Shown: positions 7,997 through 45,218, counted from the stretch's first letter. The stretch: 64,000 nucleotides of DNA from Candidatus Marinacidobacterales bacterium (GCA_965250115.1 CBDFNJ010000001.1:1450175-1514174); one strand, 5' to 3'. Notes: generated from the sequence alone by a model not told the origin. Numbers and translations are program-made.

Positions 7997-8021
7997 GAGA
8001 ACGATCACGTACCCGACTCAT

Positions 8022-9040: not shown

Positions 9041-9049
9041 GCCGACTTT

Positions 9050-9201: not shown

Positions 9202-9235
9202 GGGAGCGAGATCCGGGACGAGTCGGGCGACCCCG

Positions 9236-10084: not shown

Positions 10085-10169
10085 GAGAACCTTCGATGAC
10101 TAATTGATACACCGCTTTGGGCTCGTTTTCAAACTCCTTCCCGGAACGCCCCGGAGCTACAATCTCGTC

Positions 10170-10631: not shown

Positions 10632-10635
10632 GTAC

Positions 10636-11250: not shown

Positions 11251-11261
11251 CGAAGGTCACA

Positions 11262-12128: not shown

Positions 12129-12152
12129 AGCGAAGGGATGCTTCTTTTTTCT

Positions 12153-14163: not shown

Positions 14164-14358
14164 TGGAATCCCTCTCGACGGCTACAGCCCAAGGAAGGAA
14201 ACTCTACACAGTGTAACAACGGGATGCCAGCAGTTACTTTCACAGGTACCGCTCGAGGTGGTAGTATCCATGGGTTGCGCGGCCATCGCACCGCAATCCT
14301 GTGCGGCACGACGGAGAACGCTCCGTCGTTCTAGCTGCGCGCTCAATTCGGAGGCCAT

Positions 14359-25727: not shown

Positions 25728-26419
25728 GCGCTCGCGATCTCGTCGACAATGCGGCGGGCCGCGTCTTTCGGATCCACGTCCCTGGTGATGGCTCGGCCGA
25801 CAACGACGTAGCGGGCGCCGCGCCGCGCCGCCTCTCCCGGCGTCGCGACCCGTTTCTGATCGTGTGCGGCCTGAGCCCAGACGGGCCTGACGCCCGGTAC
25901 GAGAATCTGGAGTCGGTCCTCCGTAGCCTCCCGAATCGCTTCGACTTCAAAAGCCGAAGCGACCACGCCGTCGAGACCGCTCTCGTCGGCCATTCGGGCC
26001 AGCCGCACGACCTGGGCGAGACTCCCATCTAGAAAACCCAGCTCCCGCAGATCGTCATCGCCGAGATGCGTCAGAACCGTGACGCCGAAGATCAGTGGAG
26101 TTCTCGCCCTACGGGCGGCGACGGCGGCCGCCATCATCGCCCTCCCGCCCGACGCATGGACATCGAGGATATGGACGCCGTGCGCCGCGGAAGAAGCGAC
26201 GCCGCCGGCCACGGTTGCCGGGATGTCGTGAAACTTCAAGTCGAGAAAAATTCGGCTACCCGCGAGGGCGCCGAGAATCGCTGGTCCCTCCGCCGTGAAG
26301 AGCTCCTTGCCCACTTTAAAGAAGTCGACGACCGGCGCGAGAGCGTCGCGCAAACGGAGGGCCTCGTCACGGGTCGAGACGTCGAGAGCAACGATGAGCT
26401 CGGAAGCCTTGCCTACCAC
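25724..26419 (-). CDS. pyrF: orotidine 5'-phosphate decarboxylase
   Basis: It has the LIVALDV, DFFKVGKELF and LDLKFHDIP motifs. The GTG start overlaps the pyrD stop. The long N-terminal extension of ORF 25724-27511 is the wrong frame and overlaps pyrD. Confidence 0.8.
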   Translation of the reverse strand: MVGKASELIVALDVSTRDEALRLRDALAPVVDFFKVGKELFTAEGPAILGALAGSRIFLDLKFHDIPATVAGGVASSAAHGVHILDVHASGGRAMMAAAVAARRARTPLIFGVTVLTHLGDDDLRELGFLDGSLAQVVRLARMADESGLDGVVASAFEVEAIREATEDRLQILVPGVRPVWAQAAHDQKRVATPGEAARRGARYVVVGRAITRDVDPKDAARRIVDEIASA

Positions 26420-27372
26420 CCGGGTGGAACCGCCGTTACATCCACGATGATGCCGCCGGTGAGCTCGCGGAGGGCATGCACCCGATGGCGGCGGCAGTAG
26501 TCCGAGAGCCCATCGAGGGTGCGCCGCCAGACCCCTGGATCCACGAAGCCCATCGTGCCGATCTGGACGGCGGAGGCGCCGGCGAGCACGAACTCGAGCA
26601 CATCTTCGTACGACGATATGCCGCCGATCCCGATAATCGGGATCGAGAGCGCTTGCGAGGCTTGATAGACGAGGCGCACGGCGATGGGACGAATCGCAGG
26701 TCCGGAGAGTCCTCCGACAACGTTGGCTAGACGAGGTTTTCTGGTCTCGACGTCGATCGCCATGGCGGGCATTGTGTTGATCAGAGAGACTGCGTCCGCA
26801 CCCGCGGATTCGACCTTTCGAGCGACGGCCGCGATGTCGGTCACATTCGGGCTCAGCTTGGGAATGACAGGAAGACGGGTCGCTTTGCGCACCGCCTCGG
26901 TTACGTAGGCGGCCATGTCGGGATCGCAGCCGAATAGGATGCCACCCTCGTGCACGTTGGGGCAGGAGATGTTCATCTCGATCCCGGAAATACCCTCCAC
27001 GGTATCGAGCAAGCGCGCGAGCTCCGCGTATTCTTCGACGCTGCTGCCGCATATGTTGACGAGGATGGACGTTTGAAGCTCGCGCAGTCGCGGGAGTTTC
27101 TCGTCGAGAAACCGCTCTATACCGACCTCTTGCAGACCGATGGCGTTGAGCATGCCGGAGGGCGTTTCCCAGATTCGCGGCGGCCGACAGCCGTCGCGCG
27201 GCTCGAGATAGAGCCCCTTGACCGCAATCGCCCCGATCGCCTCGTAGTCGGCAAGCTCGAGATACTCGGTGCCGTATCCGAAAGTGCCGCTCGCTGCGAT
27301 GAGCGGAGCCTTCAAATGGATCCCGGCGATCTCGACACTCAAGTCGGGATGATCCTGGCTCGCACGGCTCGT
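26413..27372 (-). CDS. pyrD: dihydroorotate dehydrogenase catalytic subunit (class 1B PyrD)
   Basis: It has the LIAASGTFGYG, NISCPN, IIGIGGI and FVLAGASAVQIGT motifs. The start MTSRAS at 27372 overlaps the pyrK stop. Confidence 0.85.
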   Translation of the reverse strand, partial: TSRASQDHPDLSVEIAGIHLKAPLIAASGTFGYGTEYLELADYEAIGAIAVKGLYLEPRDGCRPPRIWETPSGMLNAIGLQEVGIERFLDEKLPRLRELQTSILVNICGSSVEEYAELARLLDTVEGISGIEMNISCPNVHEGGILFGCDPDMAAYVTEAVRKATRLPVIPKLSPNVTDIAAVARKVESAGADAVSLINTMPAMAIDVETRKPRLANVVGGLSGPAIRPIAVRLVYQASQALSIPIIGIGGISSYEDVLEFVLAGASAVQIGTMGFVDPGVWRRTLDGLSDYCRRHRVHALRELTGGIIVDVTAVPPGW

Positions 27373-28178
27373 CATAGAGGGTAAGGATCGTGCTCCCAGC
27401 AAACGGCGTCCGCCTCGAAGACGGGTCCCTCCGAGCAAGATCGCAGGTATTCGGAAACCCCGTCTCCGGTGCGCATATAGACGACGCAACCGAGACAGCA
27501 TCCCATCCCACAGCCCATCCTTCGCTCGAGAGAGACCTGGTGCGGAACCGAGAGCGGTCGAGCGATCTCGGCGACTCTTCGAAGCATCGGCGAAGGGCCG
27601 CAGGAATACAGCATGGGCGGCCGAGCGTCGCCGAGTGCCTCCTGCAAGAGATCGGTCACCAAACCCTTTCGCCCATAGCTACCATCTTCCGTCGCGCATC
27701 GGACATCCATGTCGAGCGCTTTGAAGACCTCCAGAAGATAGAGGTCACATCGACTCCTGCCGCCGAGTAGAACGACCCCACGGCGCCCGTAGCGATGGAG
27801 CGCTCTCGAAAAAGCGACGAAGGGCGCGATACCGACTCCCCCCGCGACGATGACCGGCGTGCGCTCGGGCGGCGGTAGAGTGAAGGCAGAGCCCAGGGGG
27901 CCGAGGCACGAAACATTGGTTCCCAGGGGCAGTCGGGCTAGCGCACGAGTCCCACGTCCCGCCTCCTTGACGAGTAGACTGAACCGACCTTCGCCGTCGG
28001 CGTCACAGAAGGAATACGGCCTTCGCAATAAGACGTCGGACACCTCGGGGAGACGTACCATCGTGAACTGGCCTGGCTCGAAGCTCTCGAAGAGGCTCTC
28101 CGAACGGAAGTGGAGCAAGTGCGCGTCGGAAGAGAGAGCTTGCTTTTCTACCAATTCGGCACTCTCGTCCCTTCTCAC
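27372..28178 (-). CDS. pyrK: dihydroorotate dehydrogenase electron-transfer subunit PyrK (FAD/NAD + 2Fe-2S)
   Basis: It has RPYS (FAD), GGVGIAP, and the C-terminal Cys cluster CGMGCCLGC. Confidence 0.8.
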   Translation of the reverse strand: MRRDESAELVEKQALSSDAHLLHFRSESLFESFEPGQFTMVRLPEVSDVLLRRPYSFCDADGEGRFSLLVKEAGRGTRALARLPLGTNVSCLGPLGSAFTLPPPERTPVIVAGGVGIAPFVAFSRALHRYGRRGVVLLGGRSRCDLYLLEVFKALDMDVRCATEDGSYGRKGLVTDLLQEALGDARPPMLYSCGPSPMLRRVAEIARPLSVPHQVSLERRMGCGMGCCLGCVVYMRTGDGVSEYLRSCSEGPVFEADAVCWEHDPYPL

Positions 28179-28205: not shown

Positions 28206-28856
28206 TTACGCCGTGTAGACGAGGTGGTGGATGCGGCCGATCTTTCCGCGTTGCGAGAGTCGGTAGAATCTCCTCAGCTCGGGCAGCAACCTCGCGAAGC
28301 GACCTCTCGATAGCGCGGCTTGCACAAAGTGGGAACAATATCGCGAGGCGAGCGAGCTGGCCACCTCGTAGCGCTCGCGTCGGCCGCCCTCGATGTCCGC
28401 GCGGACCTCGAAGTCGCCGAAGAGGCGGTCGAGGAGATCCTTGGGGACCCGGCCTCGGTTCCTCGACGCCAGAAGCAGCGTTGCCGTCACGAACTTGTCA
28501 ACTTCCGCCTGTAGCTCCAGCTCCAGTTCCGTTACGACGCGCTCCCTTGACGCACTGAAGAGAAGGTAGGCAAAGTGGCTGACCTCCTCGATGGCCGTGA
28601 CCAGGGTCTCGAAGCTCTCGGACGTCATTTGCACCGAAAGGTCGATCTCCCGCAGCCGGCCGAGCTTCTCATCGTCGATATAGACTCCGAGCTCGAGCTC
28701 CTCGCCCCGCTCGTTTTGACGAACGAGCACTTTGCTGTGCCTCGGGTCGGCGCCGAAGTGGGCACAGAGGTCTCCCGTGATCAAGAAATCGCGGATATCG
28801 ACCTCGAGCTCCAAACTATAGACCTGATCGATATGCCTGAGAATGGACTCGAGCAT
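28206..28856 (-). CDS. hypothetical protein (216 aa), no recognisable domain
   Basis: A clean ORF with good codon-position GC pattern. It is co-directional with and downstream of the PilB/GspE-like ATPase. Confidence 0.4.
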   Translation of the reverse strand: MLESILRHIDQVYSLELEVDIRDFLITGDLCAHFGADPRHSKVLVRQNERGEELELGVYIDDEKLGRLREIDLSVQMTSESFETLVTAIEEVSHFAYLLFSASRERVVTELELELQAEVDKFVTATLLLASRNRGRVPKDLLDRLFGDFEVRADIEGGRRERYEVASSLASRYCSHFVQAALSRGRFARLLPELRRFYRLSQRGKIGRIHHLVYTA

Positions 28857-28859
28857 GGT

Positions 28860-29447
28860 TCAGTGTATTACGCGCGGCGTCGTGCCCAGCTGAATGCCTT
28901 CGCGTCGAAGTAACGCCTCGCTGCGCCTGCTGCCCGTTTGAAGCCACTTCTCGTAGAGACGCAGAATGCCTCCCACCTCGGAGAGCGCGCTCTCCTCGCT
29001 CACCTCGTTGAGCACGTCGACGAACCGTCCGAACTTCGCGGAAAGCTCGTAATAGACTTCCGCCGCCTCACCAGGGCTGAGACGAGCGGCACGTCCGTAG
29101 GCATAGCATCCCATGCGCACATAGTAGTCGAGATCGACGCGCCGTCGAGCGATGCTATCGGAAAAGAAGCCGGAAACGAACAGCGCCAGATCGCCCGTGA
29201 ACTTCAAGAGCGTGAATCGTCGTCGTCCCTCGCTCTGAAGCGCGTCGCCGAGAATCTCGGCAAGAGTCTGATCTTTGTCGAGCTCCGCTCCCCTATAAAG
29301 ATCGTCGAAGCTCACGAAATTATCGAGAAGCTGTACCAGATAAAAGGAAGAAAGCTCACTCGATGCGAAGCCCTGCCGTGCCATCGCGTTTTCCACGAGC
29401 TCCTTGAAGAGCATCACCGGCGTCTCAGAGTGAACCAGCTTGTCCAT
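28860..29447 (-). CDS. hypothetical protein (195 aa), no recognisable domain
   Basis: A clean ORF 3 bp upstream of the previous one, between the ATPase and hyp-216. Confidence 0.4.
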   Translation of the reverse strand: MDKLVHSETPVMLFKELVENAMARQGFASSELSSFYLVQLLDNFVSFDDLYRGAELDKDQTLAEILGDALQSEGRRRFTLLKFTGDLALFVSGFFSDSIARRRVDLDYYVRMGCYAYGRAARLSPGEAAEVYYELSAKFGRFVDVLNEVSEESALSEVGGILRLYEKWLQTGSRRSEALLRREGIQLGTTPRVIH

Positions 29448-29665
29448 CGCATCACCTCCTCCGCATCTACAGACAGAGAGGCTGCAAATTGCGTGCTACG
29501 AGGTGCCGGGAGAGGCAAAAAGACCGTAAACGTATATTGTTCAGCGTTTTAGTGCGAAGTCCCAGGTCGTCTGGAGGCTTGGGAGAGTGACAAAATGTGT
29601 CCGTTTTGGGAGGCGGTGCCTCAAAGTTTGCGATTAGCAGCCTGGCGAGGCGAGTGCTGAGCGGG

Positions 29666-31258
29666 TCACTCGACGAACGTGACCTTGTTGATATCGGAAA
29701 GCGTCGTCACCCCTGCAAGGACTTTCTCGATGGCCTGTTCTCTCAACGGACGCATCCCTTCCTCGCGCGCGACACGCTTCAGTTCGGCCGTGCTCTCGCG
29801 TTCGAGAACCAGCTCGCGCAATCGATCGGTCAGTCCCAGGAGCTCGCAGAGCGCAGTGCGGCCGCGAAAGCCCGACCCGTGACATTCGTAACAGCCGGCG
29901 CCTTCGAAGAAACGTCCATCGAAGGTAGGATCGAGCAGACCGGAGAGCTCGAGCTCGTCGTTGTCGACTTCGACCTGGCGGCGGCAACGCTCGCAGATGC
30001 GACGCACGAGTCGTTGAGCCATGACGCAGTTCAGGGCGGACACGAAGTTGTAGGGCTCGACTCCCATGTGAAGAAAGCGGCCAATCACATCGAAGGCGTT
30101 GTTGGCATGGACCGTCGTGAACACGAGGTGTCCGGTCAGCGCAGCCTGAACCGCGATGGTCGCGGTCTCGGGATCGCGCACCTCACCGACCATGATCGTA
30201 TCCGGATCGTGTCGAAGGATGGATCGCAGCCCCCGGGCGAAGGTCAAGCCCTTCTTCTCGTTCACTGGAACCTGGGTGATGTGTTGAATCCGATATTCCA
30301 CCGGATCCTCGATTGTGACGATCTTCTGCTCGGCGGACGCGATTTCGGAAAGAGCGGCGTAGAGCGTGGTGGTCTTGCCGCTACCCGTCGGTCCAGTCAC
30401 GAGAACCATCCCATAGGGTTCGCGAATGAACTTTCGCAAGCGTTTGAGCTCGAGATTGGGAAAGCCGAGTAGATCGAGTCTGAGCTCGGAGAACTGCTCG
30501 CTAATGGACTCTTTGTCGAGGATTCGAACGACGACATCCTCACCATAGATGCTCGGCATGATCGAGACGCGGAAATCGATGGGTCGGCCCCTTATCCTGA
30601 GCTTGAATCTCCCATCCTGCGGAATCCGCCTTTCCGCCACGTCCAGCTCCGCCATGACCTTGAGCCTCGAAACGATGGTGGAGTGGTGAATGCGATCGAC
30701 GGGTTCCATAGCGGGATAGAGGACGCCGTCGATACGATACTTCAGAAGGACTTTCTCTTCTTTCGTCTCGACGTGGATGTCGCTCGCCCGACGCTCGAGC
30801 CCATTGAGCAGAAGCGAGTGCACGAGCTTGATGATCGGGGAAGCCGTCTCGGCTTCAGCGTCGAGGTCTCGTTCGTCATCCTCGTCGTCGGCTCTTGCCT
30901 GGAGCTTGAGCTCCTCAGAAGCCTTGTCCAGGAGGAAGGAAGAGCTTCGGTTGCGAGCCAGAATCTCCTCGATCGCGGAAGCGCTCGCGACCTCGATGGT
31001 CAGAGGACGCCCGAGGGTCAGCTCGAGCGCGTCGAGCTCGCCATATACGCTCGGGTCGGAGACGGCGACGACCAGCCTCAGACCCTCCGCTCGCAACGGG
31101 ACAAAGCGGTAGCGAAGAAGGAGGTTCATCGGAACCTCCTGCCAGACCTCAACGTCCTCGCGAAACCCTGTCAAATCGACGAAAGGATACCCGTAGCGCT
31201 CCGCGAGCTCCCGGGCTTGCTCCCCGTCCGTAACGCTTTTCTCGTTTTGGGTCGACAC
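29666..31258 (-). CDS. PilB/GspE/MshE-family secretion ATPase (N-terminal T2SSE_N/MshEN-like domain, Walker A GPTGSGKTTT, C-terminal tetracysteine)
   Basis: It has LVTGPTGSGKTTTLYA, Asp/His boxes, CERCRRQ...CYECHGSG, and an N-terminal GYPFVDL. No GspF/PilC, pilin or secretin genes are nearby. Confidence 0.8.
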   Translation of the reverse strand: MSTQNEKSVTDGEQARELAERYGYPFVDLTGFREDVEVWQEVPMNLLLRYRFVPLRAEGLRLVVAVSDPSVYGELDALELTLGRPLTIEVASASAIEEILARNRSSSFLLDKASEELKLQARADDEDDERDLDAEAETASPIIKLVHSLLLNGLERRASDIHVETKEEKVLLKYRIDGVLYPAMEPVDRIHHSTIVSRLKVMAELDVAERRIPQDGRFKLRIRGRPIDFRVSIMPSIYGEDVVVRILDKESISEQFSELRLDLLGFPNLELKRLRKFIREPYGMVLVTGPTGSGKTTTLYAALSEIASAEQKIVTIEDPVEYRIQHITQVPVNEKKGLTFARGLRSILRHDPDTIMVGEVRDPETATIAVQAALTGHLVFTTVHANNAFDVIGRFLHMGVEPYNFVSALNCVMAQRLVRRICERCRRQVEVDNDELELSGLLDPTFDGRFFEGAGCYECHGSGFRGRTALCELLGLTDRLRELVLERESTAELKRVAREEGMRPLREQAIEKVLAGVTTLSDINKVTFVE

Positions 31259-31452
31259 GATCTAAAACTTCCAGAAACCCTATCGAGCCATGCTAGAGGC
31301 GCGCTCCAAACATTGTCAACTTCAACACTGCTTTGACTTTCCGCGAGAACGCGTGCGACAATGGCTGAAACTCGCTTCCTCCGCGGACGCAAAGTCCGAT
31401 TCGGCACATTTGGGTTTTTATCGCTTCGAAACACCTCGGGGCTGAGCGGAGG

Positions 31453-33883
31453 ATGGATTTTCTCAAGAGCTATCTGCCGGCGCCGGTCGTCGATATCTTC
31501 CTGCCCGTTTTCATCGTCGTCGTGATCGTCGTGATCGTCGCTCTCGTCTATCCGCGGCTCGCCGCGAAGATCAAGGAGACCGGTGCCTGGGACCGCGTCG
31601 TCGACAAGGTAGGCGGCGAGAAGCTCCGGCTCATGCAGTTCGAGCGCGAGATAAGCCGCTTGCAGAAGTCGGGGAATCTCGTCGGCGCCGCGCGCCTCTA
31701 CGAGGAAGCCGAATGGTATCCGGAAGCGATCAATCTATACATAGAAGCCGAAGAGTTCATCACCGCAGGGACGCTCTACGAGCAGCTCGAGCAGTGGGAC
31801 CGTGCCTCCGACATGTACCAGAAAGCCGACGACTGGAAGCGTGCCTCGCGCATGCTCGTCAAAGTCGGAAAGCACGGCGAAGCGGCTAAACACTTCGAGC
31901 AGCACGGCCAGAAGATCGACGCCGCGAAACTGTATCTCGACGCGGGACAATACGATCGCGCTGCCGCGCTCTACGAGGACGTCTCCTAATTTCCCCCAGG
32001 CGGCGAAGTGCTACGAAAAGCTCGGCCAGTACATCAAGGCGGCCGAGAACTACGAACAGCACTGGTCTGCCACGACGTCGGTAGGTGGCAGCGGCCTCAT
32101 CTCCTCGCCCTCCGATCGCGAGGCCAAGGTCGCGTTGCACGCCGGCCAGCTCTACGAAAAGGGCGGTGCTCCCGAACGTGCGGCTGAGCTCTACAAGCGC
32201 GCTGGTCTTTCGAACCAGGCGGCGACGCTCGCCGCCAAAGAAGGGCGTTTCAAAGACGCAGCGGAAATGCTCCTCAAAGAGGAGAAGCTCGAGGAAGCAG
32301 CCGGCATGTTCGAACAGGCCGGCGAGGCCAAGCGAGCCGCGCTTCTGCGTGGCGAGGTGGCCTTTCACCGAGGCGACGCGGCCTTCGCGGCCGACAAGTT
32401 TCTCGAAGGCGGCGACAACCTGCGAGCTGCGGAAATCTACGAATCGATCGGGAACCTGAGCGCCGCTGCGCGCTGCTACGAGGAGAGCGAGGCGCCCATC
32501 CAGGCCGCGAATGTCTACCTGAGAGCCAACGACAAGGACCAAGCGGCGGCCATGTTCGAGCGAGGCCGAGATTTCGAGCAAGCGGCTCGACTCTACGAGG
32601 ATATCGGCACCCTCCCCAAGGCCTCCTCTCTCTACGAACAGAGCGGGCGGCTTTACGAAGCGGGCAAGCTGGCCCACCAGCTCGACGACAACGAACGTGC
32701 GATCGAGCTTCTGCAGCAGATCGACGCAAGCCACGAGCACCACGATTCCGCGACACTCATTCTTTCGCGTCTGTTCATCAAGAAGGACATGCCGGCCCTC
32801 GCGGTGGACAAGCTGCGTCGGCTGCTCGGAGAACAGCAAATCAGCTCGCAGACGCTCAAGCTCTTCTATTGCCTCGGACTGGCTCAGGAGAAGCTTGGCA
32901 AGACGAGTGAAGCGATCGATACGTTCCGCAAGATCATGACGGAGCGCTATGGATACGAAGATGTGGAGCAGCGCATCGCCCGTTTGGGTTCACCGGGGGC
33001 GCCAGATCCCGCACCTCAAGCGCCGACCGCGGCGGAGCTTGCGCAGCCGGCCGTGGCTCCTGCTCCTGCAAGTGCTCCGGCATCCGCTCCAGCCGGGGCG
33101 GCGCCCCGAGCGGCCTCGGCGACCGCCGCTTCTCCGATAGAGCTTGCTGAGGAGCTCGGAAAGGGACTGCTCGGCGTCTCCTACAAGGGGGTCGACACGC
33201 GCAGCGGGCGCCCGGTGGTCGTCAAGCTCCTCCGAGACGACCTGCTCGCGGATCGCGACGTGTTCCAGCAGTTCCTGGCAGAGGCGAAGCTCGCGCGCGG
33301 GCTCGAGCATCCGAGCCTGGTTCGTCTTCTCGGTCTCATCGAGATTCAGGGAAAGAAGGCGGCCGTCAGCGAGTACGTAGAGGGATTCAATTTGACGGCC
33401 TTTCTCGCCAAGAACCAGCGCATCTCTCTCAAACAAGCCGTCGATCTTCTGACCAACCTCTCGGCAGCTCTCGGCTACGCGCACGAGCGCCGTTTGCTCC
33501 ACCGGCACCTCAAGCCGGCGAACATCCTCGTCGCGGGAGGAGGCAAGCTCAGGCTTACCGGTTTCGGGCTCGGAGCCCTTCGGCTCCCCAATTTGGGCCG
33601 CGCCGATGGCTATCCGTCCCCCGAGCTCTTAAGCGGGTCGCCCGTCGACCCGAGGTCGGACATCTACTCCTTGGGCGCCGTGATCTTTCACGCGTTGACT
33701 GGATTCCATCCAGATAGCGAGCAACTGTCTCAGAACGGAGCTTCGGCGCGCCTGAAACAAGTCTTGCCAGAGGCACCGGAAGCGCTCGACCAGATTCTCG
33801 CTCGCTGCCTCATGAAGAATCCTGCCGAGCGTTTCGGCTCTACGAACGAGATCGCCGACGCCGTACGGACCGTGCAAATCTGA
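31453..33883 (+). CDS. membrane-anchored repeat protein with C-terminal Ser/Thr pseudokinase domain (apparent +1 frameshift at ~31987)
   Basis: It has an N-terminal TM helix. Its ~27 tandem 13-aa repeats (AAxxYExxGxxxx) span the ORF1/ORF2 junction, with the repeat register preserved if one T at ~31987 is skipped. A Pro/Ala linker follows. The kinase fold has Gly-loop LGKGLLGVSYKG and Lys VVVK, but HRHLKPAN (HRD to HRH) and GFG (DFG to GFG). Confidence 0.6.
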
Positions 33884-33955
33884 ACATCTCCCGAGCAGCT
33901 TGACGCCGCAACCGCTCCGCTCGAAACAGCATGATAGGATCCCGTCCCGGTTGGA

Positions 33956-34627
33956 ATGACGGTCATGTCGAACACGTGCTGGTCCTGCCAGAAGGTCAAA
34001 GGCAAAAGGGCTTGTCCCGCGCGCGGGGACGAGCTCATCTGCTCGCGATGCTGTGGGACGAAGCGCGGCGTCGAGATCCGATGTCCGAGCGGTTGCCCCT
34101 ATCTCCGCGGAGGCCACGACGCGAAGTGGGAATCCGCCGCCCAGCAGAAAGAGGAAACACGTTTCTTGAGTCACTTCCTGGGCCTTCAGGACCGGGAGGC
34201 GGCCTTCCTGTTCTTCGTGCACCATCTGATCCTCCAGGCAGGCGGACGGCTCGGAACCCTGTCGGACGGCGGGCTCTCGGACGTTCTGGAGTCCACGCTC
34301 AAGACCCTCGAGACCCGCTCCAAGGGCGTCGTCTATCAGCATACCTGCAGCGCATCGGAGCTTCAGCCACTAGCGAACTGGCTCGTGCAGGTCTTTTCGG
34401 CACGCGGCGAGCTCGCGAACGCGCCAGAGGTGTCGGACGATGACGCGATTCGGGTTCTCGGAACGATGCGCCTCGCGGTGGTGGCCCACGAGCAGCACGC
34501 CTCAGCCCGGAGGACCTATCTGGAGACGGCGGTCCGTGTCATGGGCCCGAGTCTTTCGGATGCACCTGCCATCGAGCTGCCGGAGACAATGAGCTTGCCG
34601 AGCGGCGATCGGATCGTGTCAAGGTGA
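33956..34627 (+). CDS. Cys-rich zinc-ribbon protein (hypothetical)
   Basis: An N-terminal CWSCQK...CP...CSRCCG...CPSGCPY followed by a ~170-aa unknown domain. Confidence 0.45.
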   Translation: MTVMSNTCWSCQKVKGKRACPARGDELICSRCCGTKRGVEIRCPSGCPYLRGGHDAKWESAAQQKEETRFLSHFLGLQDREAAFLFFVHHLILQAGGRLGTLSDGGLSDVLESTLKTLETRSKGVVYQHTCSASELQPLANWLVQVFSARGELANAPEVSDDDAIRVLGTMRLAVVAHEQHASARRTYLETAVRVMGPSLSDAPAIELPETMSLPSGDRIVSR

Positions 34628-34696
34628 GCGCCATCCCGATCGGGTCCAGCAGCTCGACCTACGGTATAATGAAAGAAGTTCCACCTAAATTTCCCT

Positions 34697-36844
34697 GTGA
34701 GCGAGGCGGCCTTGGTCGAGATTAGTCACCGCGAGAGGGTCGTCCGGGCCAAGATTATCTATTACGGCCCGGCGGCTGGCGGGAAGACGACGAATCTAGT
34801 CGTGCTTCATCGCTGTGCCGATCCCAAACGCAGAGGCGAGATGGTATCGGTGAACTCGACGCAGGATCGGACGATCCTTCTCGACCTCTTGCCGATGAAA
34901 ACCCCAGCGTTTCGTGGTTACGACCTCCGCTTTCAGGTCATTGCGGTGCCGGGCCAGCGGATGTATGCGGCGAGCCGCAAACTGCTGCTCAACGGCGCTG
35001 ACGCAGTCGTTTTCGTAGCAAACTCCGCCGCGGACCGGTGGGAAGAAACCATTCAGAGTCTCCGCGAGATGAACCAGAACCTGCTCACGCATGGCCTGGA
35101 CCCTGCGACCATCCCGGTCACGCTGCAGTACAACAAGCGCGATCTTCCGGAGGTCACGCCCATGGAAGTGATGGAGCGCACGCTGAACGCGCGGCGCACC
35201 GCCAGTTTTTCCGCGGTCGCCATCCGCGAAGAAGGCGTTTTGGAAACTTTCGCGGCGGCACTCAAACAGACCATGGAGGACATCACCACGCGATTCAAGC
35301 TCGGCGCCAATACGCGCAACGCTCGCTCCATCGAAGAGTGGACGGCCGAGTCCATGCGCGCGATGTTCGAGTGGTCTCCCGTCGCCGACAACGACCTGAT
35401 GTCCGCGGCCAGCGGAGCCACGGCGCCGTCCACGAGTCGCGAAGCCAAAAACCCATCGACAGCGTCGCCCCCCGCAACGCCGCAACAACATACGCGGGTT
35501 GCCGTCAAAGTGCCGGTGGCACGATCCATCGAAGGCGGCTCTTCGCCGTCGGCAGCTACTCCCGCGAGCGATCCCCAGGCAGCCGAAGCCCTCGTCGACA
35601 GCTACGCCCAGGCGGCCGCCGATCTCACGACCGCGCTCGAGGACATGCGGGACCGACGCGAACTGTCGGAGCAGCGTGCGAAGGATCTCGTCGCTCCCTT
35701 CGACGCGGCACAATCGCTTCTTCGCGGCTCTCCGTCGGACGACGTTCTGCGAACCTTGTTGATGCGCATCGCGGAGAGCCTGGGCGCAGTGAGTAGCTCG
35801 CTGTCTCTCGTGAAAGAGAACGAGCTTCGGCCCGTGATCTTGCTCGGTCTTCAGCGAGAGCCACCGTTCTCAACGGTCGATGGCTCCGGTCGTCCTCTCG
35901 CGATGGGATTGCTCGAAAGCGCGAAGCCTCTGGTTTTCGCCCTCGGGGATCCAGGACCCCTGGGCGACGTTCTGGAGAAGAGCGGCGGCAAGCTCACGTC
36001 GATCGTGGCGATCCCAATCCGAACGCCCGAGGCGACGGTCGGGCTCGCGTGCTTCTACCTCGCGCCCGAGTCCGCATCGCCGCACCCCGAGGCCATCGAT
36101 CATCTAGACCGACTCGGCAACGGGATCGCACTCGTCATCGAGCTCGCCGCCGGGCGCATCGCTCGCGAGCGGCTCGGGCTGAGTGAACGCATGGCGCTAA
36201 CGGGCCGCGTCTCCGAGCAGGCCATTTTGGAGATCGGACCGCCCCTCGACAGACTCTTCGCGACTCTAGGCCGCGTTCGCGCGCAGCAGAATGTGCCCGA
36301 TAGTTTTCTCAACGAATTGAAGGGCATGGGTATGGAGCTGTCCTGCGCCAAGAGGTACCGGGACGCGGTGCTCGGGCTCATGGTGGGACAGCCGCCCGCT
36401 ATGGAGCTCGTGCCGCTCGCGAACGTATTCCACGGGGTTCGGGTTTGGACGGCGGATAGTCTCGAGCGCCACGCGGTGCGCCTCGAAACAACACAGCCCT
36501 CCCCGGGAGACCGCGTGAGGACGGACGCGTTCCTCCTTCGGTCGGCGCTCGCCGCCCTCGTCGAGCGTTCCGAGAACGACTTTGCCGGCCACTCGGGAGG
36601 CTTGATTCGACTTTCGTCGAGAATCGATAACGGGCGCGCCTACATACAAATCGCCGACAACGTTGCCGCGATCCGAAACTCCCGTAACGGAGCGGAAGAC
36701 TACGTCGCCTGGACGCTGAACCGCAACTCGAGAGGCTGGCCTTTGTCTTTCGTCGCGAACGTCGTCGCTTACTCACATGGTCAGTGGACGAACTCGGCGA
36801 CCGAGCACGGAAACGAGCTCACCATGATCCTCTCCGCGCAATAA
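34697..36844 (+). CDS. MglA-like Ras-superfamily small GTPase fused to a ~520-aa C-terminal region (GAF-like + GHKL/HATPase-like)
   Basis: The first ~195 aa align motif-by-motif with MglA: YYGPAAGGKTTN (P-loop), DRT (switch I), AVPGQ (switch II), ADAVVFVANS, QYNKRDLP (G4). The C-terminal region has GAF-like segments and GHSGGLIRLSS / NGRAYIQIADNV, resembling GHKL ATPase boxes. Confidence 0.7.
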   Translation: MSEAALVEISHRERVVRAKIIYYGPAAGGKTTNLVVLHRCADPKRRGEMVSVNSTQDRTILLDLLPMKTPAFRGYDLRFQVIAVPGQRMYAASRKLLLNGADAVVFVANSAADRWEETIQSLREMNQNLLTHGLDPATIPVTLQYNKRDLPEVTPMEVMERTLNARRTASFSAVAIREEGVLETFAAALKQTMEDITTRFKLGANTRNARSIEEWTAESMRAMFEWSPVADNDLMSAASGATAPSTSREAKNPSTASPPATPQQHTRVAVKVPVARSIEGGSSPSAATPASDPQAAEALVDSYAQAAADLTTALEDMRDRRELSEQRAKDLVAPFDAAQSLLRGSPSDDVLRTLLMRIAESLGAVSSSLSLVKENELRPVILLGLQREPPFSTVDGSGRPLAMGLLESAKPLVFALGDPGPLGDVLEKSGGKLTSIVAIPIRTPEATVGLACFYLAPESASPHPEAIDHLDRLGNGIALVIELAAGRIARERLGLSERMALTGRVSEQAILEIGPPLDRLFATLGRVRAQQNVPDSFLNELKGMGMELSCAKRYRDAVLGLMVGQPPAMELVPLANVFHGVRVWTADSLERHAVRLETTQPSPGDRVRTDAFLLRSALAALVERSENDFAGHSGGLIRLSSRIDNGRAYIQIADNVAAIRNSRNGAEDYVAWTLNRNSRGWPLSFVANVVAYSHGQWTNSATEHGNELTMILSAQ

Positions 36845-36856
36845 CGAGCGGTCTCG

Positions 36857-37864
36857 ATGCGAGCCCAGGTCATGGTCCTAGGGCCGGTCGAGCGTGAACT
36901 CCGGCTTCACCTCATCGACGACTTGCTGCCCAGTGGGTCGAAGCGCGCTGACGAGATCTCGTGGAGCATCAGCGGTTATTCTCTCGAGCTGGCGGAGCGG
37001 CTTTTCAAGCTCGAGCTCTCGTCCGGACTCATAGCCACTCTGGGCGATACGCCAGAGGATCTACAGATGATCGCGGAGATCCGCAAGCGTGGTGTCCAGA
37101 CCCGCGCCATCCAACAGGGCGGAGCGGGCCGCATGACGGTTCGCCTACGAACACCGAGCCAATCCATCCAAATCGAGCCCGTAGCGCCCGTTGTGCCCCC
37201 CAAGATGCCGGACGTCGTCTCGGCGCTCAGGCAGGCACGCCATCTCCACGTGTGTCCCGAAAGCTCGCTCTCAGGTCCGGTCCGGCAGCGAAACCTCCAA
37301 GCGCTCACCTACGCTCGGCAATCCGGTCTCTCGACCTCCTTGAGCCTTCCAGATCGGCTGGACGCGCCCCGGCAAATCGACGCGGTGGAACGTGTATCCC
37401 TCCTCTCGGAGGTGGACGTCCTCTTCGCACGGGGCAATGTCCTACGGTCCCTGGCCGGAGAGCGCCGGCTGGCTCGCGCCGTAGACGTCCTCTTCGATTG
37501 GGGGGTTTCCGTCGTGGCGGCCTCGCTGGACGCGGGGGGTGTTCGTATCTACGGACACACCGAGGCGGAAAGGATCCCGAGCTTCGGCAACGAGGTGGCT
37601 TCGCCCGGAGCCGCGTTCGCGAGCGGTTTTTTGCTCGGATGGCTCCTCGGATCGCCCTTGACTTGCTGCGGATTAATGGGCGCGGCCGCCGCGCTCCGGG
37701 GCGAGCGTCACAGGCTCCCCGACCGTCGTAGGGTTTCCGGGCGCCTGGGACGCGCTCGCAGCGCTCCGAGCCTGCGGAGGCTGGTGCCAGATCTGATGGA
37801 GGCCCAGAGGGTTTTGTCGCGGAGGAAGCGATTGCCCCCGCGGTCTCGAGCCCGAGGTGTCTAG
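36857..37864 (+). CDS. PfkB/ribokinase-fold protein with degenerate active site (possible pseudoenzyme); 3' end uncertain
   Basis: The N-terminal beta-clasp pattern (MVLGPVERELRLHLIDDLLPSGSK...) and C-terminal VASPGAAFASGFLLGWLLG resemble the DTTGAGDAF anion hole, but with GAGD replaced. Confidence 0.4.
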   Translation: MRAQVMVLGPVERELRLHLIDDLLPSGSKRADEISWSISGYSLELAERLFKLELSSGLIATLGDTPEDLQMIAEIRKRGVQTRAIQQGGAGRMTVRLRTPSQSIQIEPVAPVVPPKMPDVVSALRQARHLHVCPESSLSGPVRQRNLQALTYARQSGLSTSLSLPDRLDAPRQIDAVERVSLLSEVDVLFARGNVLRSLAGERRLARAVDVLFDWGVSVVAASLDAGGVRIYGHTEAERIPSFGNEVASPGAAFASGFLLGWLLGSPLTCCGLMGAAAALRGERHRLPDRRRVSGRLGRARSAPSLRRLVPDLMEAQRVLSRRKRLPPRSRARGV

Positions 37865-38169: not shown

Positions 38170-40989
38170 ATGGGTGAGTCATTTCTCAGACGGGTCTTGT
38201 CTCCCGTCGTGACGTTCCGGGAGGGAGAAGCGGTTACCTGCGTCCTCATGTTCGTCTACTCCTTCCTCGTGATGACCGCTTACAACAACATCAAACCTTC
38301 CGCGGCCTCGAAGTTCATCGCCGATCTCGGCGCCGACAATGTGCCCTATGTGATGCTCATCGCGGGTCTCACGATGGGCTTCATCCTGAACTACTACAGC
38401 CGGGGCCTCACGAAAGTACCCAAGCTCTGGGTGCTTCCCGGAACGCAATTGCTCTTGATCGCCATGCTGGTCGGCTTCTGGTTTCTCTTCCAGACGGGCG
38501 AGGCCTGGCAGGCCTGGATCTCGGCGGCGTTTTTTTTCTTCGGCCGGCTTCTGCTGGGCATCTTTCTCATCAGCCAGTTTTGGACCTTGGCCAACGATAT
38601 CTACGACCCGCGGCAAGCGAAACGGGTCTTCGGATTCATCGGCGGAGGCGCGACCCTGGGAGGCATGACGGGATCGGGCCTCACGGCGCTTCTCGTCAAG
38701 CGGGTCGGCACCGAAAATCTCATCCTGTTCAGCGCGGCGGTGCTCGCCTTATGTTTCTTCCTCATCCTGGAAATTCAGAAAAGAACGAAGCGGGAGGGAG
38801 ATACTGAAGGCTCCTTCGAAGCCAAAGGCAGCACCGTCGGAGGCGGAGAAGCGCTCGCCATGCTGCGAAGCTCCCGGCACCTCAAGCTCATCGCTCTGAT
38901 CATCGGGTTCGGAGCCCTCGGCGCCGCGACGCTCGAGCAACAGCTCTACATGGCTTCCGAGGGCGTCCTCGAGGGACAGGACAGCATCACGAGCTTCCTG
39001 GCCGGCATCACGTTCTACATTTCCCTCATCGGCTTCGTGATTCAGGTTTACTTCACTTCCCGCATCTACAGTCTGCTCGGTATCGGGTTCGCACTTGCCG
39101 TACTCCCGGTGACCCTCGGCGCTACGGCGGTGATGATTCTCACTTACCGCGTGCTCTGGGCGTCCAGCGCGGCTCGAGTAGCGGACAGCGCGCTTCGCTA
39201 CAGCCTCGACAAGACCACGCGCGAAACGCTCTTCCTGCCTTTGCCGACGGAGCTGAAGCTGAAAGCAAAAGGCTTCGTCGACGTCGTCGCGGATCGCTTC
39301 ATTGGCAAGGGCATCGGCTCGGCCATCCTGCTGGTGGCCCTCAAGGTCTTCGACGTCTCCTGGTACCACTTGAGCTTGCTCAGCCTCGTATATTGTGTGC
39401 TGTGGCTCGCTCTGACGCGTCTCGCGAAGAAGGAGTACATGGCCGGGTTCCGGCGCAGCATCGAGACCCTCTCGCTCGAACCGGAGAGGCTCTCACCGGC
39501 GGCGGGCGACGCGGCCACTGTCGAGACGCTCGTCGAGGAGTTGGGGAGCTCGGACGAACGACGGGTTCTGCGCTCGATCGAGCTCCTCGAAGCCCTGGAG
39601 AAGCGAAATCTGATAACGCCTCTGCTTCTGCACCACGCTTCGGCCTCGGTGCGTGCGCGAGCGCTGAGAGCCATCCAGGCAGGCCGGCCCGAGATCGTCT
39701 CTCGGTGGCTCCCGGCCGTGGAGCTCGCGCTAAAGGACGAGGACGGCGACGTTCGCGCCGCGGCAGTGGAGGTCATCGCATCGGCTCGTGCCAGTGGCGT
39801 CCTGGACCTGATGCGAGGCTACCTGCACGACCGCGACCACCGCATCGTGGCAACCGCCGCGATTGCGCTAGCGGAGAGCGACGATGAAGCCGATCGAGTC
39901 GCCGCCTACGACACGCTTGAGCGACTGGCCTCGGATACACGAGGCGCTGCTGCAGCGGCACGCCGTGAAGCGGCGCGCTCCATCGTCCGCACGTCCGACC
40001 CGCGCTTCCGCCACCTCCTCATGCCTCTGATGCAGGACGCGGACCTGAGTGTGGCACGCGAGGCCATTCGAAGCGCTCGTCAGTTGGGCGATGACGATGC
40101 CCTCTTCGTGCCCGCGCTCGTTTCCCTGCTGAGACACCGCAGGCTCAAGAACACTGCCCGGGAAGCCCTCGTCAGCTACGGCGAGACCATCATTCCGACG
40201 CTTACCTACTTCCTCGCGGACGACAACGAGGAACCCTGGGTACGTCGACACATTCCCGAAGTGCTCGCCTTGATTCCAGATCGAGCCTCGGTCGAAGCGC
40301 TTCTCGTCTGCCTGGAGAGCGGCGATGGGTTGCTTCGCTACAAGGCGGTTCAGGCGCTCGAACGAATTCGGCGCATGGACCCGGACCGCGAAATCGACCC
40401 GGAACCGGTCCAGCGACAGCTCTTGAAGGAGGTCGCACGCTACTACCGCTACCTCGGCGCGGGCTATGACCTTTTTGACAAAGGCGGGCTCGCGCGCGAC
40501 TCGCTCGCCGGCCAGGCTTTGCGTGAGAAACTCGAGCGCGGGATGGACCGCATCTGCAGGCTCCTTGGTCTCATCCACTCGTTCCAGGACATCCGTGCGT
40601 CCCGATGGGCAATCGAAAGAGGGGACCCTCGCTCCCGAGCAAGCGCTGTCGAGTTTCTCGACAACACGCTTTCGGGGCAGTTCCGCAAGCTTTTTCTTCC
40701 CCTGGTGGACGACGTACCGCAAGGGGAACGGATTCGGAAGGGTAACGTGTTCCTCAAGACGCGTGTTCGCAGCATCGAGGATACGCTTGCGCGGCTCATC
40801 TACGACGACGACGTCGTTGTGGCCGCCACCGCGATCGACGTGATACGAGAGCAAAAGCTATGGTCGCTCGCGCCGGACCTCGAACAGGTGCTTCAGTTTC
40901 GCGATGCGAAGGACTTCGCGGTCTTCGAGTCCGCCTCCTTCGCGCTCGCGGCCTATCGATTGAGAATGGACGAGCCCCGTGCGATTTGA
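38170..40989 (+). CDS. ATP/ADP-translocase-like (NTT/TLC family) 12-TM transporter fused to C-terminal HEAT/PBS-lyase-type repeats
   Basis: The first ~430 aa are polytopic with NTT-like motifs (FWTLANDIYDPRQAKRVFGFIGGGATLGG). The C-terminal ~500 aa are alpha-helical repeats with recurring E/DxxVRxxAxxAL signatures. Confidence 0.65.
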   Translation: MGESFLRRVLSPVVTFREGEAVTCVLMFVYSFLVMTAYNNIKPSAASKFIADLGADNVPYVMLIAGLTMGFILNYYSRGLTKVPKLWVLPGTQLLLIAMLVGFWFLFQTGEAWQAWISAAFFFFGRLLLGIFLISQFWTLANDIYDPRQAKRVFGFIGGGATLGGMTGSGLTALLVKRVGTENLILFSAAVLALCFFLILEIQKRTKREGDTEGSFEAKGSTVGGGEALAMLRSSRHLKLIALIIGFGALGAATLEQQLYMASEGVLEGQDSITSFLAGITFYISLIGFVIQVYFTSRIYSLLGIGFALAVLPVTLGATAVMILTYRVLWASSAARVADSALRYSLDKTTRETLFLPLPTELKLKAKGFVDVVADRFIGKGIGSAILLVALKVFDVSWYHLSLLSLVYCVLWLALTRLAKKEYMAGFRRSIETLSLEPERLSPAAGDAATVETLVEELGSSDERRVLRSIELLEALEKRNLITPLLLHHASASVRARALRAIQAGRPEIVSRWLPAVELALKDEDGDVRAAAVEVIASARASGVLDLMRGYLHDRDHRIVATAAIALAESDDEADRVAAYDTLERLASDTRGAAAAARREAARSIVRTSDPRFRHLLMPLMQDADLSVAREAIRSARQLGDDDALFVPALVSLLRHRRLKNTAREALVSYGETIIPTLTYFLADDNEEPWVRRHIPEVLALIPDRASVEALLVCLESGDGLLRYKAVQALERIRRMDPDREIDPEPVQRQLLKEVARYYRYLGAGYDLFDKGGLARDSLAGQALREKLERGMDRICRLLGLIHSFQDIRASRWAIERGDPRSRASAVEFLDNTLSGQFRKLFLPLVDDVPQGERIRKGNVFLKTRVRSIEDTLARLIYDDDVVVAATAIDVIREQKLWSLAPDLEQVLQFRDAKDFAVFESASFALAAYRLRMDEPRAI

Positions 40990-41878
40990 ACTGCTTGCTC
41001 CCGTTCCTGCGGTCGCTCTCGCGCAAAAGCTGAGACGCATACCTCTATTCCGATTCGCGTCGGTCGACGAGCTCTTTCGCATCGCCACCATCGCTCGCCA
41101 GGTGCGATACCCCGCTCGAGCCATCGTGCAGGAACGCGGAGCACCGGCGGAGCACCTCCAGGTCCTGCTGGAAGGAAGCTTCGAGCTTGAAGAGCAAGAG
41201 GGCAATAGTCTCCTCGAACCGCCAGCGCTCGTGGGCTTTCAGGAGGTTCTGGAAGGCACGACGATTCGGGCAAGTGCACGGGCCAAGGTCGATTCGATCG
41301 CGCTCGTCATGGCGGCCGAGGAGTTTCGTACGCTGCTCTCGGCGAATATCGAGATCGCGCAGGGATTGTTCCGCTTGCTTCTCGAATCGAGCCGCAATGG
41401 GGCGCGACCAAGTGTCGTCGACGTATCGCGCCTCGAAGACTCGAGCGGCGGAGCTACCCTCAAGACCGTGGACAAGGTCCTCTATCTGCAAGCCATCCCG
41501 ATCTTTGCCCGCGCGGATAGTGACGAGCTCTTCGAGCTAGCCGCGATCACCAAAGATCACGAGCTTCAGCCCAACGCCATCTTGTTCTCCGAGGGCGATC
41601 CTGCTTCGATTCTCGCGCTCCTTTCTGGGGAGATCGAGCTCATGCCAGCTTCAGGAGGCGAATCCTTCCAAGTGGCCGCGGGACAGTGCATCGGCGTCAA
41701 CGAGACCCTCGCGGGAGCCTCGTGGCCGTTCAGGGGACGTGTCACCGAGGCGGGTAGGGCCCTCGATATTCATCGCGAGCTGTTTTTCGAGCTCCTGTCG
41801 GACCGGCTCGACCTGCTGCAAACCATCTTCGGTGCCGTCTTCCAGGGGAAGAAGGCGGAAGAGACCAGCGAAACATGA
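40979..41878 (+). CDS. tandem cyclic-nucleotide-binding (cNMP) domain protein
   Basis: Two CAP-like effector domains (IPLFRFASVDEL...; IPIFARADSDEL...) with a GTG start overlapping the upstream stop. No DNA-binding HTH is evident. Confidence 0.6.
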   Translation: MRFELLAPVPAVALAQKLRRIPLFRFASVDELFRIATIARQVRYPARAIVQERGAPAEHLQVLLEGSFELEEQEGNSLLEPPALVGFQEVLEGTTIRASARAKVDSIALVMAAEEFRTLLSANIEIAQGLFRLLLESSRNGARPSVVDVSRLEDSSGGATLKTVDKVLYLQAIPIFARADSDELFELAAITKDHELQPNAILFSEGDPASILALLSGEIELMPASGGESFQVAAGQCIGVNETLAGASWPFRGRVTEAGRALDIHRELFFELLSDRLDLLQTIFGAVFQGKKAEETSET

Positions 41879-44703: not shown

Positions 44704-45218
44704 GTTCTCCAGCAGCAGGTGGCCGAGCTCGACCGCGGCCAACGCTCGGTGACACGGACCGCGCCCCCGACTAATGACCCGACCCACCAGATATTGGCCG
44801 CTTGAACGAGCTGGGCTCGAGACGGTGTTCGCAGAATTACGGGAGCGCGTCGCCAGCGCCCACCGAGGAGGAGCTTGGCCTCTACGAAGGTCTCCCTCTT
44901 TGTTGCTGCCCCAATCGTCTCCAAACCGTCTCCAAAACTGGGGAGGACTCCAGAGGACTCGGGGAGATAGCCCGCCGAAAAAAAAGCCTCAACGGAGTTT
45001 CGATTGCCGCTACTCTGTCAACGCCCCCGTCTTCGCGAGGGCTCTTTAAAGGAGCATGTCCTGCGTTCGACGCGGAGGCTATTTGGACTGATGTCGGCGA
45101 TGCTGGGCCGAGCGTTCTCGTTTAATGGAGTCTCATTAAGTAATGTTGCGGCGTTCCCCGGGTGTTCCCCCAGCGGCAAAACAGACTTCGGCGAGTACCA
45201 GTAAGTGCCTGATTCGAT

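Follow-up and report, generated by a model that had tools for sequence, protein, structure and literature searches.

Does a run of eight genes with uncommon domain combinations act as one signalling module, or do only some of its members belong together? The question is raised by a 64-kb stretch of DNA (hereafter the window; G+C about 60%) from a Candidatus Marinacidobacterales bacterium (GCA_965250115.1 CBDFNJ010000001.1:1450175-1514174), an uncultured acidobacterium of soil or sediment. Its closest relatives are metagenome-assembled genomes (MAGs) of Vicinamibacteria, order Ca. Marinacidobacterales, phylum Acidobacteriota. Vicinamibacteria are abundant in soil, and few members have been cultured. 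The original prediction, made from the sequence alone, placed eight open reading frames (ORFs) between the pyr genes and a nucleotide-transporter-like locus, and read all of them as a secretion or localisation switch controlled by a small GTPase and influenced by cyclic di-GMP (c-di-GMP). The eight ORFs are indeed found there (28206-37864), flanked by pyrK/pyrD on one side and a TLC/MFS-HEAT transporter gene on the other.

As a unit, the nine-kb module of eight genes does not hold; three or four of the eight belong together. On the plus strand, these encode a membrane-anchored pseudokinase, a cysteine-rich protein (Cys8) and a fusion of an MglA GTPase to a histidine kinase (HK)-like region. 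A PilB-like ATPase is encoded divergently. The claim that the locus encodes unusual and apparently undescribed signalling proteins survives, and part of them make up a conserved gene set. The explanation that we lean towards, without calling it probable, is that the three-gene operon, with the divergent PilB-like ATPase as its output, represents a variant of the way in which MglA- and PATAN-type proteins regulate motors. Among bacterial polarity switches of the Ras-like kind, MglA serves as the model.

The pseudokinase gene and its cysteine-rich partner

The first gene of the putative operon (31453-33883, plus strand) encodes a transmembrane-anchored protein with a 13-residue-repeat/TPR solenoid and a Hanks-type pseudokinase domain. 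A hydrophobic helix near the N-terminus (residues 11-33, read from the sequence) is followed by the tandem repeats that had been predicted, whose 13-residue periodicity gives autocorrelation peaks at lags 13, 26, 39 and 52, and which Pfam reads as TPR/SNAP/IFT-type. The kinase domain has a Hanks fold (Pfam Pkinase, 3e-34, 119 bits). In the window it keeps the VAIK Lys and reads HRH and GFG at the other two catalytic motifs, in agreement with its description as catalytically dead.

This loss is shared by the family in part only. Among 86 orthologues, the VAIK Lys is present in 85, the HRD Asp in 84, and the DFG Asp has become Gly in 84; the Gly loop, the alpha-C Glu and the catalytic-loop Asn or Asp are retained. 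The change from HRD to HRH is confined to the window's genome, the 96%-identical protein P0149 being HRD. A second tier of kinases (n = 20, 37-47% identity) shows another pattern, with VAIK Lys replaced by Arg, HRD by HGS and the DFG Asp retained, and a third tier (n = 8, 26-33% identity) has wholly canonical catalytic residues. At the level of these motifs, the active site has been crippled twice, independently, with fold and solenoid kept, which indicates selection for a putative non-catalytic or atypical role. In particular, the independent losses point to a possible scaffold role.

The original prediction described one repeat-kinase gene. This is true of the relatives, but in the window the gene is split into two ORFs (31453-31989 and 31802-33883), which had gone unnoticed. 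One surplus A near 31988 (TCCTAATTT in the window, TCCTATTTC in three related loci, L008, L007 and L001) introduces a TAA stop and moves the reading frame by +1. With the 1-nt insertion removed (about 31988/31989), the protein has about 809 residues, and relatives at 95%, 67% and 50% identity carry a single ORF of about 796-822 residues. The stop codon created by the insertion, the HRH found in this genome only, and a PfkB-like gene at the end of the cluster with degenerate motifs and a higher ratio of nonsynonymous to synonymous substitution (dN/dS 0.27) could all be remnants of a cluster that is decaying in the window's genome. We regard such decay as highly improbable. Related assemblies have single-base frameshifts as well, and the gene that is struck differs: L008 and L007 are hit in the MglA fusion, L092 in both the fusion and the kinase, and L001 in the transporter (sites at L008 ~11545-11590; L007 ~10183-10204; L092 8119-8191, ~8976-9161 and ~12474-12480; L001 ~13918-13954). 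Such scatter is a typical mark of assembly error, and it suggests that indel errors are systematic in these MAG and metagenome assemblies. Moreover, the core genes have dN/dS values of 0.10-0.23, comparable to those of the housekeeping neighbours pyrD and pyrK. Since relatives have single-base shifts in other genes, and since both parts of the pseudokinase gene give low values against L008 (0.11 for the N-terminal and 0.23 for the C-terminal part), the split is most likely an assembly error.

The second gene (33956-34627, plus strand) encodes the 223-residue Cys8 protein, in which eight invariant cysteines are spaced CxxC-x8-C-x8-CxxCC-x9-C-x3-C ahead of a helical bundle. Its cysteine-rich character had been recognised, and the protein probably binds metal. 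The kinase gene lies directly 5' of the Cys8 gene in 48 of the 59 loci with sufficient upstream sequence. These include a distant tier (31-41% identity) with unrelated flanks; for example, in L087 an amino-acid permease gene lies upstream of the pair and DUF1501/DUF1800 genes lie downstream. Because the adjacency is this frequent and extends to loci with unrelated flanks, the pseudokinase-Cys8 pair is a genuine unit. With it, the bacterial pseudokinases appear to gain a family whose genomic partner is fixed and which is apparently undescribed in the literature searched.

The gene 3' of the pair varies. It encodes the MglA fusion in 19 loci, a PATAN-domain protein (PF14332) in 12, a PfkB protein in 7 and other products in 11, and the PATAN protein replaces the MglA fusion in a sister clade. 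In two distant loci (L144 and L145), a PfkB gene adjoins a zinc-ribbon gene of the Cys8 type. We set this adjacency aside as probable coincidence, because the PfkB protein there is only 27% identical to that of the island and belongs to a different subfamily; it resembles an RfaE-type heptose kinase. In both loci, the zinc-ribbon gene (a Cys8 homologue at 31% identity; 351-1037 in L145) and the PfkB gene (1090-2106 in L145) are followed by a family-9 (heptosyl) glycosyltransferase gene.

The MglA fusion and the divergent ATPase

The third gene (34697-36844, plus strand) starts 69 nt past the Cys8 gene on the same strand and encodes an MglA-GAF-DHp-CA fusion of 715 residues. A database protein, P0001, has 710 residues and starts at 34712, and the length is thus 710-715 residues. 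In profile searches against structures, residues 4-192 match MglA (E 1e-57) and residues 470-700 match the DHp and CA domains of HKs (ThkA, 8e-15; ZraS, 5e-14), and the MglA-GAF-GHKL fusion that had been proposed is upheld. The predicted structure (pLDDT 79) comprises the GTPase (1-195), a disordered linker (about 225-285), a 50-residue helix, the GAF domain, a DHp hairpin and the CA domain. It resembles MglA structures (TM 0.84-0.88, 38-40% identity), and the Foldseek matches of its HK part include YF1, bacteriophytochromes, ZraS, DivL and CpxA.

Group-1 MglA proteins are marked by a P-loop, an intrinsic Arg finger by the G2 Thr, a catalytic Gln in xVPGQ and an NKxD motif (PMC4316618). In the fusion, GPAAGGKTT, QDRT (R58), AVPGQ (Q87) and NKRD show little or no variation (alignments of 17 and 60 sequences), with the Thr of TVPGQ replaced by Ala. 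The GTPase is Group-1-like in these motifs and retains the catalytic Arg and Gln, from which we infer that it would be competent for GTP hydrolysis. The HK part has lost its key residues. No phospho-acceptor His is present in any of the 17 aligned members, which have Leu or another non-His residue, and the window protein has Leu opposite the His of the ThkA sequence vaHEirNP. In the N-box, the window's clade has Arg (LVERSE) in place of Asn, which distant paralogues alone retain. The G1 GxG is lost in all aligned members though 'DN' is kept, and no G2 box is recognisable among them. Since the phospho-His, the N-box Asn and the G1/G2 glycines are missing, the fusion is, by its motifs, an MglA tethered to a pseudo-histidine kinase that is predicted to be unable to autophosphorylate.

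The original prediction held that MglA-family GTPases are normally small and stand-alone. This is true, but the fusion itself makes up a large family with solitary paralogues. The matches listed include over 100 full-length representatives of clusters at 90% identity, the most distant at 36% identity, and wherever a source is named it is Vicinamibacteria. Several copies may occur in one genome, as with L007 and L010 on one chromosome. A scan of a genome collection with patterns from the fusion alignment (GTPase motifs) returned 80 loci, of which eight held fusions and most others plain mglA. The fusion is also unlike a single-domain MglA with a Roadblock/LC7 GTPase-activating protein (GAP) encoded nearby, as no Robl_LC7 match was obtained among the window proteins scanned or the called genes of L001. 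The Wuichet & Sogaard-Andersen 2014 survey centres on single-domain GTPases of 160-180 residues (PMC4316618), with no discussion of MglA-GAF-DHp-CA fusions in those parts of it that we draw on, and no description of such a fusion was found in the literature searched. Near some paralogues there are GGDEF/EAL and PilZ genes. A solitary paralogue in L005 (12297-14153, minus strand) is followed by an opposite-strand Pkinase-TPR gene, and one in L006 (5886-8075, minus strand) by an opposite-strand PAS-GGDEF-EAL gene; these kinase and c-di-GMP genes may be recurrent neighbours or may lie there by chance.

Divergent from the three genes lies the gene of a PilB/GspE-family hexameric ATPase of 530 residues (29666-31258, minus strand). 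As had been predicted, it is of PilB/GspE type: it matches T2SSE at 1e-129 and carries Walker A (GPTGSGKT), the Asp box (IVTIEDPVE), Walker B (IMVGEVRD), the His box (GHLVFTTVH) and a tetracysteine Zn motif (CERC...CYEC). Its scores are below the curated cut-offs for PilB (TIGR02538; 539 vs 675.65 bits) and GspE (TIGR02533; 535 vs 630.25 bits).

The N-terminal region of the ATPase is where c-di-GMP entered the argument. An MshEN-like domain had been proposed there, and Pfam 'MshEN' does match (4e-16), along with a weak match to the NfrB MshEN region; the influence of c-di-GMP does not follow, since what prompted the idea was the name of the Pfam domain and not the motif. The MshEN receptor consists of two tandem 24-residue motifs at the extreme N-terminus, with the pattern RLGxx(L/V/I)(L/V/I)xxG(L/V/I)(L/V/I)xxxxLxxxLxxQ (PMC5013675). 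As judged by this published pattern, the motif is absent in both its strict and its published relaxed form from the window ATPase and its L007 and L001 orthologues, and the PilB of L049 is without it too. About 21 residues only precede the Pfam match, and upstream stop codons bar an extension of the ORF. On this sequence evidence, the 'MshEN' label does not imply c-di-GMP binding, and a c-di-GMP input appears largely refuted. With it goes most of the case for a GTPase-controlled, c-di-GMP-influenced switch of secretion or localisation to which all eight genes contribute, a reading that we give hardly any credence: the Pfam name, the NfrB match and the GGDEF/EAL and PilZ genes near some paralogues speak for it, but the c-di-GMP motif is missing and the PfkB-like gene and two small ORFs of the cluster vary independently (see below).

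The ATPase and pseudokinase genes are separated by a 194-nt intergenic region with back-to-back sigma-70-like promoters (31290-31362, both strands). The minus-strand promoter is TTGACA-18-TAGCAT (31319-31290), and the plus-strand promoter is TTGACT-18-GACAAT with a TG upstream (31333-31362). A plus-strand element, TTTGAC-N17-TGCGAnAAT, is invariant in nine loci, the remainder of the spacer being unalignable. By eye, the TTGACA and TAGCAT elements of the ATPase promoter recur in L007, L097, L001 and L104. In the fetched sample, the PilB-like gene is found in all loci with an MglA fusion that extend far enough upstream.

Operon, inherited synteny and neighbouring genes

In the mechanism that we propose, the functional unit would be the three-gene plus-strand operon transcribed from the conserved promoter. 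Its first product would be a single-pass membrane protein with a cytoplasmic alpha-solenoid of 13-residue repeats and a kinase domain that keeps its nucleotide-binding residues and has lost the Mg-binding DFG Asp. The helical Cys8 protein, as constant companion of the pseudokinase, would form a membrane-bound scaffold with it. The MglA GTPase would sit on a flexible linker to a dimeric coiled-coil-GAF-DHp-CA module, and in its GTP state could engage either the scaffold or an effector. The state of the GTPase may be set, in cis or within the dimer, by the GAF/pseudo-HK module, which would respond to a small ligand or to a partner protein. As output, the PilB-like ATPase, the best candidate effector, would be placed or activated, and with it a type IV pilus-like motor whose genes lie elsewhere in the genome. 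The physical interactions in this scheme and its PilB output are all ones that we infer, beyond the domain identities, motif losses, gene linkage and promoter conservation observed at the locus.

A PilB output is proposed because MglA and PATAN, the alternatives in the third position, are both linked to PilB. MglA and the TPR protein SgmX stimulate type IV pili (PMC7519303, PMC7668184), and PATAN regulators bind the type IV pilus motor/PilB (bioRxiv 10.1101/2021.06.11.447907); the MglA-SgmX(TPR)-PilB system of Myxococcus and the PATAN-PilB system of cyanobacteria would thus be the parallels of the proposed mechanism. The same genes also meet beyond the cluster. PATAN genes lie near plain mglA in 10 fetched loci, and the distance from plain mglA to a PilB-like gene is no more than about 2 kb in L049, L076 and L086 and about 7 kb in L058. 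In L049 the gene order is PATAN, TPR-Roadblock, MglA, MglB, PilB, PilT, PilC. This compact array of polarity and pilus-motor genes is co-directional (6118-15877 of a Zixibacteria chromosome), and its MglA is a 380-residue protein with a C-terminal extension.

How firmly does conservation tie these genes together? The original prediction would have been undermined by a gene neighbourhood conserved in no other genome, and here it stands: orthologous clusters are present in many Vicinamibacteria MAGs and metagenome contigs. Yet every sufficiently long orthologous cluster also keeps the pyrD/pyrK and TLC-HEAT/cNMP/Metallophos-TPR flanks, and because these flanks are always kept, conservation alone cannot separate a module from inherited synteny. 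The adjacency of the PilB-like and MglA-fusion genes could itself be inherited synteny within one order (Ca. Marinacidobacterales and relatives), in a variable stretch of otherwise unrelated accessory genes. In that case, only the pseudokinase-Cys8 pair, or the trio, might be functional, with the other accessory genes independent and kept by descent.

Several further observations weigh against an operon that acts on the ATPase. Single genes are gained and lost, among them the PfkB-like gene, the small ORFs, the PilB-like gene, the MglA fusion, and an MreB-like gene with an 89-residue ORF. L104 keeps the PilB-like gene and has an M20 peptidase gene in the place of the MglA fusion. L103, L119 and L120 have the pseudokinase-Cys8 pair with neither PilB-like gene nor fusion, and in L119 a CoA-binding protein gene takes PilB's usual place. 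In L101 the PilB-like gene is divergent from the Cys8 gene, with the kinase gene missing between them, and the PATAN-type module of L087 has no PilB-like gene within 10 kb. Fusion paralogues (36-45% identity) stand alone in unrelated contexts. Among the ORFs scanned across the window, none encodes a PilC/GspF platform protein, PilT, a pilin or a secretin, and none encodes MglB/Roadblock.

On the other hand, synteny by descent would leave much of the arrangement unaccounted for: the MglA fusion follows the Cys8 gene at 69 nt on the same strand, a PATAN protein, from a family linked to the same biology, fills its position in the sister clade, the promoter elements do not vary although the spacer around them defies alignment, and the fusion is never without a PilB-like gene in the sampled loci. 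We consider synteny by descent a possible account, though on the unlikely side.

The operon could also be real and serve an output other than the ATPase. It may then be a membrane-proximal polarity switch or a cytoskeleton/envelope switch, with, for example, an actin-like protein as its target, or two-component proteins reached through the DHp domain of the pseudo-HK, and the PilB-like gene would be incidental. Pseudo-HKs such as DivL act through binding other signalling proteins. The pseudokinase-Cys8 pair persists without the PilB-like gene in L103, L119, L120 and the PATAN clade, and an MreB-like gene lies in the same island in L001, L103, L104, L119 and L120; MglA binds MreB in Myxococcus (PMC4508894). 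The MreB-like gene encodes an actin-like protein of 390 residues (MreB_Mbl 6e-06, weak) and lies with the 89-residue ORF by pyrK (2842-4448 in L001, and likewise in the other four loci). But the clade to which the window belongs lacks this gene pair, conservation extends to the divergent promoters shared with PilB, and the links of MglA and PATAN to PilB are documented. An output of this other kind is unlikely, in our view.

We keep to an operon that may act on the PilB-like ATPase. A broader form of this reading is that the pseudokinase-Cys8 pair is a platform that takes interchangeable outputs (MglA-GAF/pseudo-HK or PATAN) and directs a PilB-type motor in Vicinamibacteria; we regard this generalisation as doubtful, if well worth stating. 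If it is true, this would be the first MglA GTPase under the cis control of a module of two-component origin, in place of MglB/RomRX, and the pseudokinases would form a new bacterial family whose partner is defined. To our knowledge, all studied examples of MglA are free-standing and depend on Roadblock-type GAPs and RomR/RomX. The fusion family points to an alternative control of a small GTPase, in an arrangement like a fused, simplified conservon. Two separate routes to catalytic death, together with a fixed partner, make the function of the pseudokinase testable. Moreover, a handle on surface motility and signalling in Vicinamibacteria would be useful.

The PfkB-like gene and the two small ORFs fare differently. 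The last (36857-37864, plus strand) encodes a PfkB/ribokinase-fold protein (Pfam 1e-10; 41.7 bits vs a cut-off of 25.8) with a basic C-terminal tail and the degenerate active site that had been described. In the window and in L008, GG has become SG and GAGD has become PGAA, in a sequence ASPGAAF with a 3-residue deletion; the GG lid and NTxGAGD motifs are destroyed in the window, in L008 and in the clade of L096. The motifs are canonical (GGSA.N, NTCGAGDAF) in L001, L103-L105 and L117-L119, most of which lack the MglA fusion, and the gene is absent in seven loci (L007, L092, L093, L097, L110, L115 and L116). Its proposed membership in the module is thus lost, and it is probably a syntenic neighbour rather than a component.

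The two small ORFs (28206-28856, 216 residues, and 28860-29447, 195 residues; both minus strand) are conserved and have no match in Pfam, NCBIfam, PADLOC or PDB sequences. They had been called conserved-looking, and since their dN/dS values against a 95%-identical relative are 0.16 and 0.10, respectively, they are real genes. The proposed minus-strand operon with the ATPase is doubtful, because the ATPase gene lies across a 218-nt gap from the two ORFs; these are spaced by 3 nt and stop 27 nt short of pyrK. Nor do they follow the ATPase as partners would: L001 lacks them, and L103, L119 and L120 keep them although the ATPase gene is gone there. They too are probably neighbours and not components. 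In L007 a 478-residue transposase-like ORF (2549-3985) lies between the two and cuts the alignment of the 195-residue ORF short.

On the flanks, pyrK/pyrD were identified by domain search at 26413-28178 (minus strand). On the plus side, the nucleotide-transporter-like TLC/MFS protein with HEAT repeats (38170-40989, 939 residues) heads a trio at 38170-43584, followed by a cNMP-binding protein gene and a Metallophos-TPR gene with overlapping stop and start codons. The trio is kept in all related loci long enough to show it, and looks like a separate operon. Directly after the Metallophos-TPR gene comes a DDE transposase gene (43672-44787, minus strand), which with an rve-type integrase gene (19450-20808, plus strand) flanks the wider region. 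In L001 a PI3_PI4-kinase-like gene occupies the spot of the transposase. Its product (weak PI3_PI4_kinase match) is 32% identical to that of a 282-residue ORF without a Pfam match at 9236-10084 (minus strand) of the window, and the gene seems to have moved about 33 kb in the window's genome. Elsewhere in the window there are an 885-residue ORF without any Pfam match (51528-54185, plus strand) and a 493-residue GAF-domain protein with no recognised output domain (17199-18680, plus strand). Rfam gave no matches over 26-40 kb of the window. In a terminator scan, every match fell within coding regions and none rose above shuffled controls, and the operon boundaries are not informed by it. An anti-phage defence role was rejected, as PADLOC returned generic kinase-domain and P-loop matches alone.

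Comparison with known systems

The nearest parallel is the MglA-SgmX-PilB system of Myxococcus xanthus. In both, a Group-1-type MglA with Arg finger and Gln, a TPR-type solenoid and a PilB-family ATPase come together, and here they are encoded together. Unlike in that system, the GTPase is fused to GAF-DHp-CA and no MglB/Roadblock GAP is encoded nearby; the solenoid is membrane-anchored, built of 13-residue repeats and ends in a pseudokinase, with the Cys8 protein in addition; and no PilT, PilC or pilin genes lie near the ATPase. The sole sequence link to SgmX is a match at E 0.0099. In M. xanthus, the MglA paralogue SofG positions PilB and PilT.

A second parallel is the actinobacterial conservon. 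As here, an HK-type module is joined to a GTPase of the MglA family, no response regulator takes part, and output is presumed to come from the GTPase (PMC4316618, PMC13343842). Conservons consist of four genes, namely CvnA (HK-like), CvnB (Roadblock), CvnC (DUF742) and CvnD (MglA-like GTPase). Here HK and GTPase are one polypeptide, the HK part is without phospho-His and ATP-lid motifs, and it is soluble with a GAF domain instead of TM-HAMP. The GTPase is Group-1-like (xVPGQ plus Arg finger) and not of Group 2 (GTPGQ). Neither Roadblock nor DUF742 gave a match in the proteins of the window or L001.

Cyanobacterial PATAN regulators (PixG/PixE/PilG type) are brought in by the sister clade, where a PATAN protein fills the same operon position. 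The window itself has no PATAN gene, and the sister-clade protein differs from these regulators in its TPR-like tail and in having no receiver domain by Pfam.

For the pseudokinase, the bacterial Ser/Thr pseudokinase families ActPs1-3, GLW, CP1, DYD and DLHK (PMC12599244) offer a comparison. They share the Hanks fold and a selective loss of residues, and DYD and DLHK resemble the present family in that some catalytic motifs are retained; in this family the loss is limited to the DFG Asp. The 2025 review of these seven families mentions no TPR/tetratricopeptide, zinc or Acidobacteria (PMC12599244). GFG stands in for DFG in CASK too, a kinase that is reported to work without Mg. DivL, one of the fold matches of the fusion, likewise has a DHp-CA fold without a phosphorylatable His; unlike DivL, the fusion carries an N-terminal MglA GTPase and a GAF domain, and its ATP-lid glycines are lost too.

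Because there is no MglB, no CvnB or CvnC, no phospho-His and no c-di-GMP motif, the cluster falls outside each known system, and it is a member of none of the MglA-SgmX-PilB, conservon and PATAN-PilB systems. The fusion family and the pseudokinase-Cys8 pair appear to be new to the literature searched, and the biological logic that they seem to follow is a familiar one.

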